A DNA stretch of 64,000 bases from Gemmatimonadaceae bacterium (lineage in GTDB: Bacteria > Gemmatimonadota > Gemmatimonadetes > Gemmatimonadales > Gemmatimonadaceae), in contig JBJMOW010000004.1 in NCBI GenBank assembly GCA_045803545.1, forward strand, positions 1 to 64,000. The letters run 5' to 3'. Under the pieces are notes generated by a model. It did no database searches. It saw nothing but the letters and a program-made list of their open reading frames with translations, and was not told the origin of the DNA. The position numbers and the translations under genes were made by a program. Of the stretch, positions 1-11,271 are shown in pieces. Positions within the stretch are counted from its first letter, which is position 1, and every line of letters begins with the position of its first letter.

Positions 1-177
1 ATCGCACTAGGCTTCGTCGCGGGCCTCGGCGGCGCGGTCGCACTCTGCGCTAAGCAGTTCGAACACTGCTACCCGTACACGACAATGTGGGCGTCGACCA
101 CCGCAGGCTTCGCCGTCGGCTGGCTCTTTCCGACGACGATGAGGCGAACGCTTTCGACGACCGTCGTCCCGCGCTAG
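1..177 (+). CDS. 3' end of a probable membrane protein (partial)
   Basis: Open frame from base 1 (IALGFVAGLGGAVAL...GFAVGWLFP) to TAG 175-177; hydrophobic segments. Confidence 0.45.
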   Translation: MALGFVAGLGGAVALCAKQFEHCYPYTTMWASTTAGFAVGWLFPTTMRRTLSTTVVPR

Positions 178-179
178 AA

Positions 180-214
180 GCGGGAAGCGGCAGGCGGGAG
201 GCGGGAGGCGGGAG
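180..214. repeat. G-rich heptamer tandem repeat (GCGGGAR)n
   Basis: gcgggaa gcggcag gcgggag gcgggag gcgggag. Confidence 0.85.
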
Positions 215-643
215 CTAAATTGGCTCGCAGACGTCCGAGACCAGCACTGAGGAGAGCAGAAGGCGCGAAGTGCTCGAGCTGGTGTCGTAGGAGCGATCAG
301 ACCGACCGCGGTAAAGCGTGGTCGTCGTTACCGTCACCTGCCAGCTATCAGAGAAAGTGCGCGCCCGACTGCCGGTCCTGAAGTCAGGCGGCGGTCCCGC
401 CAGGCAGCCGCTGTACTCGACGTGAGAGCTCGTCTCAGTGTACTGCTCCGTCGTAACGCAGGTGCTGGTGCCGCGATCAAAGCTGCAGCTGCCACCCTGA
501 TTGGGGGACGAGCTGGTAATGGCCGCATAGGTCGGCGAAGACGGAGCGAAAAGCCGCGTCGAATCCGCCGGAGCGGTCGCTGAGTCGCAGGCGACAACCA
601 GGGGGGTCAGCAGGACGTTAAGGACAAGAAAGCGCGCAGACAT
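215..643 (-). CDS. Hypothetical lipoprotein, Ser/Thr-rich with several Cys
   Basis: ATG 643 with GGAG upstream; lipobox-like LVVAC. Confidence 0.65.
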   Translation of the reverse strand: MSARFLVLNVLLTPLVVACDSATAPADSTRLFAPSSPTYAAITSSSPNQGGSCSFDRGTSTCVTTEQYTETSSHVEYSGCLAGPPPDFRTGSRARTFSDSWQVTVTTTTLYRGRSDRSYDTSSSTSRLLLSSVLVSDVCEPI

Positions 644-713
644 ATCGGTTCTCCACGAGGACGTCACGGATAAGCGCATCATCTGTTCCGACCGCGCCCT
701 ATCAATCCAACTG

Positions 714-800
714 CCCGCCTCCCGCCCCCCGCCCGGCGCCTCCCCCTCCCGCTTTCCGCTCCCGCCTCCCGCTTCCCGCTTCCCGCTTCCCGCTTCCCGC
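714..800. repeat. C-rich heptamer tandem repeat (CCCGCYT)n
   Basis: About 12 degenerate units ending in (cccgctt)x4; reverse complement of the 180-214 unit. Confidence 0.9.
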
Positions 801-802
801 TA

Positions 803-831
803 TTGTCCAATCACGGCTCCATAACTAACTT
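803..831 (+). promoter_or_regulatory. Putative sigma70 promoter for leader-gltBD
   Basis: TTGTCC (803-808), 17 nt, TAACTT (826-831). Confidence 0.45.
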
Positions 832-841
832 CTGCATAGTT

Positions 842-934
842 ATGCATCGCCACGCCCGCGCCTATCGACTTCTCATCATCAACGCGATTACCATCGCGGT
901 GACGGGAGAGGCTGCGCGCGGTCGAAGAAGCTGA
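842..934 (+). CDS. Putative attenuator leader peptide, Ile/Leu-rich, 30 aa (MHRHARAYRLLIINAITIAVTGEAARGRRS)
   Basis: Short ORF with clustered L,L,I,I,I,T,I,V,T codons overlapping an antiterminator arm, followed by a terminator upstream of gltB. Confidence 0.75.
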   Translation: MHRHARAYRLLIINAITIAVTGEAARGRRS

Positions 935-958
935 CGACAGACTTGTAGAATCGCGCGC

Positions 959-991
959 AGGGCCTCTCCCAAAAGGACGAGGCCCTTTTTT
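959..991 (+). terminator. Intrinsic terminator (attenuator) upstream of gltB
   Basis: AGGGCCTC 959-966 / GAGGCCCT 979-986, with T-run to 991. Confidence 0.8.
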
Positions 992-1031
992 CTTGCCTGG
1001 AATTCACCGGAGCATTGCTCCAGGGATTGCG

Positions 1032-5610
<4,579 letters not shown>

Positions 5611-5618
<8 letters not shown>

Positions 5619-7080
5619 TCCGAAAGCGTTCATCACACTGCGCAGGGCGACGCCGGACCGGCAGGCAATCGCGGAGCGCGTCCACCACTGGGGCGAGTTC
5701 TATCAACCGGTCGGCGAAGCGAAGGTGCGTACCCAGGCGGCGCGTTGCATGGATTGCGGCGTTCCTTTCTGCCAGGGTGACACCGGCTGCCCGGTGCAGA
5801 ACATCATTCCCGAGTGGAACAAGCTCGTCGAGCAGGGCGATTGGCGTGCAGCGTTCGAGTCTCTGCACTCTACCAACAACTTCCCAGAACTGACCGGCCG
5901 GCTCTGCCCTGCTCCTTGCGAATCCGCATGCGTACTCGGCGTCGTCAACGAGCCGGTGGCGATTCGACACATCGAACAGCAGATCGCTGATCGTGCATTT
6001 TCGGAAGGCTGGGTCCTCCCGCGCACGCCGCGTCGGTCGACGGGCTTCAGCGTCGCCGTTATCGGGTCAGGGCCAGCGGGTCTGGCCGCTGCGCAGCAGC
6101 TTCGCCGCGCCGGTCATCGCGTGGTGGTGTTCGAGAAGAACGAGCGGGTCGGCGGCCTGCTGCGGTTTGGAATTCCCGAGTTCAAGCTCGAGAAGTCGAT
6201 ACTCGATCTGCGACTCACCCAGCTCGAGGCAGAGGGAATTGCATTCGAGATTGGCGTCAACGTTGGTGAAGACATCACGGTCGAGAGGCTGCGTGCGCGG
6301 TTCGACGCAATCTGCATCGCAACCGGCGCCGAATCGCCGCGCGATTTGCCGGTTCCCGGACGTGAGCTCGCCGGAATCCATTTCGCAATGGATTTCCTTA
6401 CTGCCCAGAATCGGCGCTTGAACGGAATCCTGCCGATCAACGGTGACATCAACGCCCGCGATCGACATGTCGTGATTATCGGCGGCGGCGATACCGGCTC
6501 CGACTGCGCCGGCACCTGCATTCGTCAGGGGGCCAGGAGCGTTTCGCAGTTCGAGCTTCTGCCTCAGCCTCCGGCCGATCGCGCGCCGGCCACGCCCTGG
6601 CCCCTATGGCCGATGATGTTGCGCTCGTCGCACGCGCACGAGGAAGGTTGCGAGCGCGAATGGAGCATTGCCACCACATCGTTCTCCGGCGACAACGGAC
6701 GGGTCCAGCGGCTGCACACTGCGCGGGTCGAGACGAGAACGCTCGCCGATGGCCGCGTGGATTTCGCGCGCATTCCGGGCTCAGAAACTGAGATCGACGC
6801 CGATCTGGTGCTGCTCGCCATGGGCTTCACTGGCCCGGTAAAATCGCGCCTGCTGACTGAGCTTGCCGTAGAACTGGACTCACGTGGGAACATCAAGACC
6901 GACGGCTCGCATCGAACCACAGTCGATGGCGTGTTTGCCGCTGGTGATGCGCGGCGTGGTCAGTCGTTAATCGTGTGGGCGATTCGGGAAGGGCGGGACG
7001 CCGCCGATGCGATCAATAGCTACTTGACGCCACGCGCCATTTCGGCCCGCGTAGAAAAACCCGCGCTTCAGTCAGTTTAA
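5611..7080 (+). CDS. gltD: Glutamate synthase small subunit
   Basis: QAARCMDCGVPFC, GRLCPAPCE, GSGPAGL, GGGDTGSDC, FAAGD; overlaps gltB stop. Confidence 0.97.
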
Positions 7081-9943: not shown

Positions 9944-10060
9944 AGGGAGGGGAGAGCGGGAGGCGGGAAGCGGGAGGGGATAGGCGAGGGGGGCGCGTCG
10001 GGACCGGGACGACGCAGCTTCCGCTTCCCGCTTCCCGCTTCCCGCCTCCCGCTTCCCGCC
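9944..10060. repeat. Inverted pair of heptamer arrays between divergent genes
   Basis: G-rich units ~9944-9995 and C-rich (ccgcttc)n ~10016-10060. Confidence 0.85.
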
Positions 10061-10089
10061 TTGACCCCCACCCAAACTCTTCCTATAGT
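10061..10089 (+). promoter_or_regulatory. sigma70 promoter, predicted leaderless start at ATG 10096
   Basis: TTGACC, 17 nt, TATAGT, 6 nt, ATG. Confidence 0.75.
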
Positions 10090-10095
10090 TGGCCC

Positions 10096-10167
10096 ATGGC
10101 CCGCCTCTACTTTACCGCGAACTACTTCTACGGATTCGATCGAACCCGGAGGCCGGCTCGCGCGTAG
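10096..10167 (+). CDS. Tyr/Phe-rich attenuator leader peptide, 23 aa (MARLYFTANYFYGFDRTRRPARA)
   Basis: 3 Tyr + 3 Phe codons within residues 5-14, upstream of a Phe-pathway gene, with terminator and antiterminator. Confidence 0.88.
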   Translation: MARLYFTANYFYGFDRTRRPARA

Positions 10168-10197
10168 TAGACTGATCCAGTCACACTCGACCACTCG

Positions 10198-10227
10198 GCC
10201 TCCGCAACGCGGGGGCTTTTTGTTTTT
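10198..10227 (+). terminator. Intrinsic terminator (attenuator)
   Basis: GCCTCCGC-aac-GCGGGGGC followed by TTTTTGTTTTT. Confidence 0.85.
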
Positions 10228-10269: not shown

Positions 10270-11271
10270 ATGTTGAAATCAAAAAGAGTCAGTCCAGCCA
10301 AACCTCGCTTGAACGGCGCCGATCGCCCTCGCGCGGGAGCGACGCTCACCCGGGTCGCATTTCAGGGCGACCGCGGCGCCTACGGTGAGGCCGCGATCGG
10401 GCAGATCTGGCGACACCCGGTGGAAGTGATCCCGTATCCGACATTCATCGCCACCGCGCGCGCGGTCGAGGACGGCGAGGCCGACGCGTGCGTGATTCCG
10501 GTCGAGAACTCCATTGTCGGGACAGTCGACGCGGGCTGGCAGGCACTTAATTCGCATCCCGGGTTGCGCAATGTCGCTGAAGTCTCGGTCTCGGTCGGTT
10601 GTTGTCTAATGGCGCCGCGCGGCGCGACACTCGAGGGATTGCGCACCGCCGCCAGCCACCCCGTCGCACTCGCGCAGTGCACTCGATTCTTCGAGCAACA
10701 TTCGTGGATCAAATCGACGAAGGCGTTCGACACCGCCGGGGCTGCGCGTGAAGTCGCCGAACGCGGCGATGCAACCCAGGCGGCGATTGCGAGTCGTGCG
10801 GCCGCCGAGCGCTACGGCCTGGCCGTGCTCGGAGAAGGAATTCAGGACGAGCGGGACAACTACACCAGGTTCGTGGCGGCGGTTTCGAACGAATCGAGAC
10901 TTTGGCGCCGCACCCATGCCGTCCGCGGCGCGACGAGCGTGGAGCAGGACGATCCACGCCACATCTATGACGCCACGCGCGAGCTGCTCGGATCAATCGT
11001 CGAGCGCAACTGGCTCGACGTCGACGAGATCATCTCCGTCTGGTTCACCGTCACCCCCGATCTCACTTCTGCGTTCCCCGCCCTCGCCGCGCGCGAGATT
11101 GGATGGGTGGACGTTCCTTTGCTTTGCGCCAGTGAGATTCCAGTCGCCGAGGCGATGCCGCGTATTATCCGAGTGCTGATGGAAATCGAGCCCCGCGCGC
11201 CCCGCAGATTGGAGAATCATGTTTATTTGCGCGATGCGGTTGCGCTGAGGCCTGATTTGCACGACAAATAG
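10270..11271 (+). CDS. pheA: Prephenate dehydratase fused to AroH-type chorismate mutase
   Basis: PDT motifs VAFQG..GAYG, PVENS, SHPVALAQC, NYTRF; then AroH motifs AVRGAT, FTVTPDL..AFPA, HVYL...ALRPDL. Confidence 0.9.
   Translation: MLKSKRVSPAKPRLNGADRPRAGATLTRVAFQGDRGAYGEAAIGQIWRHPVEVIPYPTFIATARAVEDGEADACVIPVENSIVGTVDAGWQALNSHPGLRNVAEVSVSVGCCLMAPRGATLEGLRTAASHPVALAQCTRFFEQHSWIKSTKAFDTAGAAREVAERGDATQAAIASRAAAERYGLAVLGEGIQDERDNYTRFVAAVSNESRLWRRTHAVRGATSVEQDDPRHIYDATRELLGSIVERNWLDVDEIISVWFTVTPDLTSAFPALAAREIGWVDVPLLCASEIPVAEAMPRIIRVLMEIEPRAPRRLENHVYLRDAVALRPDLHDK

Follow-up and report, generated by a model that had tools for sequence, protein, structure and literature searches.

A predicted leader-peptide attenuator in front of the glutamate synthase genes gltBD in soil Gemmatimonadales and the mixture of codons that it may read

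Ammonium is assimilated by two main routes, one of which is glutamate synthase, an enzyme that consumes glutamine as its substrate. In the Gemmatimonadaceae genome considered here, its genes are preceded by a leader region, and the question is whether this leader is a regulatory switch and, if so, which signal it reads. The window, that is, the whole stretch of 64,000 nt that was analysed, forms the start of contig C2 of a 3.7 Mb genome with 93% completeness. The large-subunit gene gltB lies at 1032..5618 on the plus strand, with an ATG at 1032 and a frame open from a TTG at 993; its product matches NF008730 with 1785.8 bits against a cut-off of 1047, and it is the single match within the host genome. 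The small-subunit gene gltD follows at 5614..7080 on the plus strand, its product matches TIGR01317 with 670 bits against a cut-off of 447.7, and the next long ORFs beyond it lie on the minus strand. The preliminary description had named the downstream genes as gltBD, as borne out by both family matches. A gene of the Glu/Leu/Phe/Val dehydrogenase family is also present in the host genome, so that glutamate synthase may not be the sole source of glutamate. Upstream, a divergent ORF of 155 aa (215-682, minus strand) has a lipoprotein-like N-terminus and no NCBIfam match.

Regarding the leader itself, a sigma-70-type promoter is predicted on the plus strand at 803..831 (-35 hexamer at 803-808, 17-nt spacer, -10 hexamer at 826-831); it was picked by rule and is not listed by a stricter promoter scan, and homologous pairs of -35 and -10 hexamers precede 59 of 71 candidate leaders. 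From this promoter-like pair, transcription is expected to start at approximately 837-839, a few bases 5' of the ATG of a short upstream ORF (uORF; 842..934, plus strand, ATG..TGA). The uORF, present as the 30-codon frame reported previously, is nearly leaderless, encodes the peptide MHRHARAYRLLIINAITIAVTGEAARGRRS and has no NCBIfam match. A protector (1:2) hairpin at 866..916 on the plus strand (approximately 866-899 with 900-916) brings its control codons into pairing with the antiterminator's 5' arm; this hairpin is found in the MFE fold of 838-930 at -32.0 kcal/mol, and its consensus fold across the genus is weak (-0.65). The antiterminator (2:3; 904..970, plus strand) joins 904-923 with 948-970: 904-913 pair with 961-970 and 914-920 with 952-958, giving 17 bp with a 2-nt bulge at 959-960, and folding lengthens the helix by 921-923:948-951. 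The fold of 900-975 reaches -42.6 kcal/mol (z = -6.55), with 0/200 shuffles as good. Folding also yields an intrinsic terminator (3:4) with a U run at 959..991 on the plus strand, of which the hairpin 959-985 and the U run amount to -19.3 kcal/mol, with 6/200 shuffles as good; a simple terminator scan did not list this bulged structure. Segment 959-970 is common to terminator and antiterminator, which makes the two mutually exclusive. The 17-bp helix, its bulge and this exclusivity had been proposed beforehand, and the sequence together with the folding of both conformers confirms them; the element seen at that time was real, but the protector hairpin and a palindrome at 833-846 had been overlooked. 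In the ranked genome-wide scan for leader candidates (an initial looser scan had passed 517/694), the gltB leader ranks first among 236 candidates by antiterminator duplex energy, and a uORF with the antiterminator geometry found here accompanies only 20 of 536 strong terminators. A small GC hairpin at 1008-1024, directly before the gltB start, encloses a possible ribosome-binding site and recurs by eye among the gltB leaders of the genus; it could provide additional translational control of gltB. Three of 4 aligned contigs from RNA runs span the junction of uORF, terminator and gltB (859-1100 with 1 difference, 877-1102 with 2, and 883-1166 with 21 and 4 gaps). The matches made up small shares in 16/16 of the RNA runs that contained them, and upstream DNA was covered as well; the contigs fit read-through RNA but also carried-over DNA, and are not counted as evidence of read-through.

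A footprint model, in which the ribosome masks 12 nt beginning with the first base of its A-site codon and the RNA is folded to equilibrium, places the stall window at Y8-T17 (YRLLIINAIT; 863-892), with A7 and I18 borderline. Codons A19-V20-T21 of the Ile/Leu-rich cluster emphasized in the preliminary description fall outside this modelled window. Without a ribosome, the modelled probability of the terminator is 0.97; termination is also predicted with the ribosome at codons 2-6 and from A19 through the stop codon, read-through is predicted at Y8-I12 and A15-T17, and A7, I13, N14 and I18 are intermediate. In terms of the model, this behaviour is the classical four-segment pattern. In the proposed mechanism, RNA polymerase would start near 838 and a ribosome would load on the almost leaderless uORF. 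When tRNAs are charged, the ribosome would reach the stop codon and cover 904-923, the terminator would form and gltBD would be off; a stall within Y8-T17 would mask the protector strand, the antiterminator would form and gltBD would be transcribed. Among the 59 leaders collected from relatives, termination without a ribosome was modelled in 49, and the equilibrium model switches in 33 overall and in 5/19 within the genus; the non-switching leaders stay terminated at equilibrium and would require kinetic control.

The distribution of this layout was followed through genomes in which gltB was matched (28/61 relatives, 87/301 family genomes and 91/251 phylum genomes). The leader is present in 20 of the 23 genus genomes in which the gltB 5' end is covered, and the three genomes lacking it carry amtB- or glnK-like genes directly upstream of gltB. 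It is found in 30/34 genomes of a sister family, plus 2/5 further ones, in 11/63 loci that belong to different genera within its own family (two of these picks are doubtful), and clearly in 1/13 loci examined from three more distant families, in which 21 had matched. The promoter-anchored rule was passed by none of a further 79 named loci, which come almost entirely from other phyla; two Blastocatellia loci among them have a terminator and a uORF. In a Blastocatellia sample of 31 loci, which are the best matches among 64/121 genomes, 21 show a strong terminator preceded by an ORF whose end lies 25-40 nt away from it, and the antiterminators are weaker. The uORFs of the Blastocatellia gltB leaders are longer and contain many Ala, Lys, Val and Ser codons. 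The conservation set comprises 59 leaders from 18 genera, and 28 of 29 newly added loci contained the gltB 5' end. In 58/59 leaders, the uORF stop codon lies 19-35 nt 5' of the terminator, a clustering partly constrained by the picking rule, which placed the stop codon between arm 2 and the terminator. The gap between the -10 hexamer and the start codon is 3-11 nt in 35/59 homologs, suggesting that many uORFs are leaderless or nearly so. Among loci without the leader (7 noted), translations show amtB- or glnK-like genes often directly upstream or divergent; this suggests a swap between P-II-linked and attenuator control of gltB.

Pair changes were counted in alignments from which the consensus structures themselves had been derived, the inner antiterminator pairs of the sister family being set by hand. 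Across 20 genus sequences, 95.6% of the antiterminator cells are paired, with 3 pairs changed on both sides, and 99.5% of the terminator cells, with 2 such pairs; the corresponding values for the sister family are 89.2% and 98.5%, each with 4 two-sided changes. Slid controls gave clearly lower pairing than the real alignments. Many antiterminator and terminator pairs are invariant, and covariation in the sister family is modest, its measures being reached by 7 to 93 of 500 shuffles. The alignment of the relatives' gltB upstream regions shows a retained uORF and stems with two-sided pair changes, and the attenuator geometry claimed at the outset recurs as a conserved layout in both the genus and the sister family.

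The amino acids to which such a switch could respond were examined in the 12 codons immediately preceding arm 2, with the 59 leaders averaged over 18 genera. Ile, Leu and Val together make up 0.335 of these control windows, compared with 0.195 +/- 0.019 in 1000 shuffles (maximum 0.26), 0.195 and 0.046 when the two remaining frames are read, and 0.217 for long ORFs. The shares of Asn, Ala and Lys are 0.094, 0.147 and 0.044, and those of Glu and Gln are 0.005 and 0.006; the windows are depleted in Glu, Gln, Asp and Gly, and order-wide also in Phe and Tyr, and the end products of the operon, Glu and Gln, are not represented by tandem codons. As the genera are kin, the z and p values given here and below are overstated: Asn is the strongest order-wide enrichment in simple shuffles (z +9.6), and shuffles preserving base use per codon position, applied to 57 leaders after the two doubtful picks were dropped, gave z +6.1 for Asn, +4.4 for Ala, +3.2 for Lys and +3.0 for Leu, with no enrichment of Ile (z -0.3) or Val (z -0.6). 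When the genus is taken by itself, the amino acids that stand out are Ile, Ala, Arg and Tyr; Asn has z +1.2 and occurs in 12/19 windows, and Ile and Leu both occur in the control window of 19/19 leaders. Blastocatellia windows are enriched in Ala (z +10.2), Lys (+9.2) and Val (+4.0), and Asn has z -1.7. The control codons of the leader studied here would be a diluted mixture of Leu, Ile, Asn, Ala, Thr and one CGA Arg codon, and those used order-wide would be Leu, Ile, Val, Ala, Asn and Lys, with Glu and Gln avoided.

For comparison, 39 ilvD/leuA leaders from the same lineages served as a paired control (40 loci were tried and 1 gave none; at 5 loci with two candidate ORFs, the richer ORF was taken). 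A convincing ilvD leader was found in 0/29 sister-family loci, and leuA leaders were therefore used there. These leaders share their design and codon style with the gltB leaders and, in the genus, a common terminator arm, but they carry dense runs of Leu, Ile and Val, which the gltB leaders do not. The best 12 codons contain approximately 5.0 branched-chain residues in gltB leaders versus 9.5 in ilv/leu leaders, with gltB higher in 0/13 genera, and the longest Ile/Leu/Val run is 2.3 versus 5.3. Conversely, gltB leaders exceed ilv/leu leaders in Asn in 13/13 shared genera (Asn amounts to 0.8% in the latter) and in Ala in 11/13. Regarding codon choice, Leu is CTT/CTC in 85% and Val is GTT/GTC in 90% of cases in gltB leaders, and Ala is written as GCC in 69% compared with 17% in ilv/leu leaders. 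The preliminary description had taken the signal to be simply Ile/Leu-tRNA charging, a claim that these densities and the Asn and Ala excess do not support in this simple form.

The common thread of the control windows is, as far as their codons can tell, the pyruvate and aspartate families of amino acids. These families obtain their amino group from glutamate, directly or via aspartate. A summed shortage of the control amino acids would therefore report low glutamate output, and the signal is somewhat more probably than otherwise a mixed gauge of glutamate-dependent amino-acid supply. Glutamate is named as the primary amine donor in PMC9436414. Under nitrogen limitation in E. coli, ribosomes stall at Gln codons, according to 10.1101/224204; as the gltB leaders lack Gln codons, they would not detect nitrogen starvation in the way that E. 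coli does. Avoidance of Gln fits a glutamine-consuming enzyme, and the leader would then report on the supply of glutamate and not on nitrogen starvation itself. Gln-tRNA formation appears to be GatCAB-dependent in this organism, and Gln codons are nonetheless avoided. Several observations run against a mixed gauge: Phe and Tyr are depleted order-wide though they are also transamination products, Ile and Val are unenriched once base use per codon position is kept, Asn is unenriched in the genus and in Blastocatellia, at least one Asn codon is also found in the his, leuC, ilvD and pheA leaders of the genome, and the equilibrium model switches in no more than 33/59 leaders.

The main rival for the leader studied here accepts the same attenuator and restricts its signal to the branched-chain amino acids, with Ala and Asn as fillers in a weakened ilv-type leader that would open only under strong Ile/Leu/Val shortage. 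Ile and Leu contribute most to the stall window, accounting for 6 of the 11 codons Y8-I18, and at least three Ile/Leu/Val codons occur in 19/19 genus and 28/29 sister-family windows. The gltB and ilvD terminators of the genome also have an identical 12-base 5' arm, and in the two sister-family genomes that were mapped gltB is divergent from leuA-ilvBN-ilvC-leuCDB, each of the two sides having its own leader. However, a density half that of true ilv/leu leaders, the Asn and Ala excess, the bias of the Ala codons to GCC and the many Blastocatellia windows that are rich in Ala and Lys with few Leu or Ile codons make this reading rather unlikely, though it deserves serious consideration. Asparagine as the key sensor, reporting the supply of glutamine amide, would explain why Asn shows the strongest order-wide enrichment in both kinds of shuffles and why N14 is kept in the nearest relative, in which adjacent codons differ. 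The 93%-complete genome contains AsnRS and AsnB-like genes with no AsnA match, so that Asn synthesis should need glutamine; as AsnRS is present, tRNA-dependent Asn formation was ruled out as the only route. Most windows, however, have at most one Asn codon, and 7/19 genus and 5/29 sister-family windows have none; Blastocatellia windows are unenriched in Asn, and it would be awkward to induce a glutamine-consuming enzyme on glutamine shortage. An asparagine sensor is accordingly considered quite improbable.

Codon choice has been weighed in the same manner. In 19/19 genus leaders, CGA encodes the Arg that precedes the cluster, and ATT (75%) and AAT (67%) are far more frequent in gltB leaders than in long ORFs of the genome (26% and 35%), as would be the case for a general sensor of elongation speed, in which slow codons (CGA, CTT, ATT, AAT) let any translational stress open gltBD. 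Since ilv/leu leaders also use ATT (56%) and CTT (37%), slow-codon style seems common to the attenuators of these bacteria, and the set of amino acids is skewed rather than random; such a sensor is improbable. It is very improbable that there is no ribosome-coupled switch, the leader being instead a constitutive terminator, a site of nascent-peptide arrest, or a protein- or ligand-controlled element with an incidental ORF. Small ORFs ending 19-35 nt before a terminator do occur by chance, at 129/536 terminators, and the equilibrium model is non-switching in 26/59 leaders. Nevertheless, two families whose RNA sequences differ both retain an ORF that begins just after the promoter and stops at a constant distance. 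An arrest peptide is disfavoured by the divergence of the uORF peptide between the families and by the reading of arm 2 in two frames (15 versus 14 leaders). As for ligands, Rfam gave 5 weak matches in positions 1-3000 of the window, all far under the gathering score, and 0 matches to riboswitch, T-box or leader models across 6 homolog loci. The gltBD leader is, on this evidence from modelling and comparison, very probably a ribosome-dependent transcription attenuator.

A second layer of control may act at initiation. A 14-bp palindrome at 833..846 covers the ATG of the uORF together with the predicted transcription start, and is the only perfect match in the genome to a pattern that was itself a consensus fitted to this site. 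We take the palindrome to be an ArgR-type box on the basis of that consensus and of the argC/argR genomic context: a related tandem pair of boxes lies between argC and argR-argG. Both features expected of a member of the ArgR regulon are present, as the promoter bears a box and the genome encodes argR, the box being single here and tandem at argR. Boxes with at least 10/12 matches occur at 37/59 gltB promoters versus 4/38 ilv/leu promoters. The 833-846 site is thus probably an ArgR operator on gltBD, and ArgR bound there would add arginine-dependent repression to the attenuator. E. coli gltBDF is repressed by ArgR, according to PMC1784095.

Other leaders of the same genome bear on the plausibility of the gltBD attenuator. 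Codon-matched leaders precede hisG (His), metY (Cys/Met), ilvD and leuC (Leu/Ile) and pheA (Phe/Tyr), where hisG, metY and leuC were named from translations and not by family scan; together with the shared terminator arm, they make a working gltB attenuator very likely. The arm suggests that one RNA cassette may have been reused between leaders. An amino-acid biosynthesis cluster at C4:1495000-1522200 has separate leaders before leuC, ilvD, metY and hisG, and the ilvD leader has an extra hairpin. Within the window, the Phe/Tyr leader (10061-10224, plus strand) has promoter-like hexamers at 10061-10066 and 10084-10089 and a leaderless 23-codon uORF from 10096 with three Tyr and three Phe codons, followed by a terminator; the next gene (10270-11271) encodes a prephenate dehydratase-chorismate mutase fusion (PF00800, PF07736). 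As judged from its sequence, this leader is a pheL-like attenuator. Short tandem heptamer repeats occur at 745-800 and 10020-10060, directly upstream of the promoters of the gltB and Phe/Tyr leaders, and similar repeats precede the hisG and leuC starts. At C2:744230-744385, a 32-codon uORF with 10 Cys codons and a terminator stands before a gene of the beta carbonic anhydrase family (PF00484); it is a candidate cysteine-sensing attenuator.

Classical leader-peptide attenuators are represented by trpL, hisL, leuL, thrL, pheL and ilvL of E. coli and Salmonella. The gltB leader resembles them in having uORF control codons in segment 1, a predicted protector, an antiterminator and a terminator, with read-through on stalling and termination when untranslated both being predicted. 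It differs from them in its target, glutamate synthase, in the near absence of Glu and Gln codons, and in a diluted mixture of codons instead of a run. It is not an ilv/leu attenuator, as it lacks a dense Ile/Leu/Val run and the downstream genes are gltB and gltD. Nascent-peptide arrest leaders of the TnaC/SpeFL type have a conserved peptide near the stall site, unlike the gltB uORF, whose peptide is not conserved. Hauser and Hatfield 1984 reportedly described, by title, an E. coli ilvB attenuator that responds to substrate-related amino acids, which would be a precedent, in a different operon, for reading amino acids other than the end product. Actinobacterial ilvB(NC) uORF attenuators use four branched-chain control codons (LVVI) in M. 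tuberculosis, according to the consulted parts of PMC10272879 and PMC13236596. The gltB leader resembles them in its short uORF, few branched-chain codons and terminator/antiterminator switch; in those parts, however, they control branched-chain biosynthesis, and no Asn/Ala/Lys enrichment or gltB target is described. PMC1784095 describes E. coli gltBDF, the same operon as in the window and likewise subject to arginine/ArgR repression (predicted here), as controlled at initiation by Lrp, IHF, Crp and ArgR, all protein factors, and the word attenuation is absent from that paper. It also reports that Lrp control is relatively insensitive to leucine, which weakens the parallel with Lrp drawn in the preliminary description. 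No description of gltB leader-peptide attenuators was found in the literature as judged from titles and abstract starts; an earlier mention may exist in Vitreschak 2004, Lopatovskaya 2010, Hauser and Hatfield 1984, their supplements or subscription journals. The main text of PMC2965389 contains no gltB or glutamate synthase, and its supplement gives 6 predicted terminators upstream of proteobacterial genes of the glutamate synthase type, without assigning an attenuator type to any of them; the parts of PMC13236596, PMC4833913 and PMC10272879 that were seen describe no gltB attenuator. The gltBD leader is very probably a conserved leader-peptide attenuator of known mechanism, with a target and a codon mixture not found described.

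A broader proposal would be a class of gltB attenuators in Gemmatimonadota and Blastocatellia that, with different RNA sequences and in combination with ArgR repression, sums the charging of Leu, Ile, Val, Ala, Asn and Lys tRNAs as a proxy for glutamate; this generalization is tentative and less likely than not to hold. If it is true, central nitrogen assimilation would be set by the speed of a ribosome, with the codons of the product itself left unused. An attenuator on gltBD would take amino-acid attenuation from end-product feedback to the sensing of metabolic demand. In the soil Gemmatimonadales considered here, at least five amino-acid operons besides gltBD have leader peptides, and together these leaders would chart regulation in bacteria that are abundant in soil and mostly uncultured.
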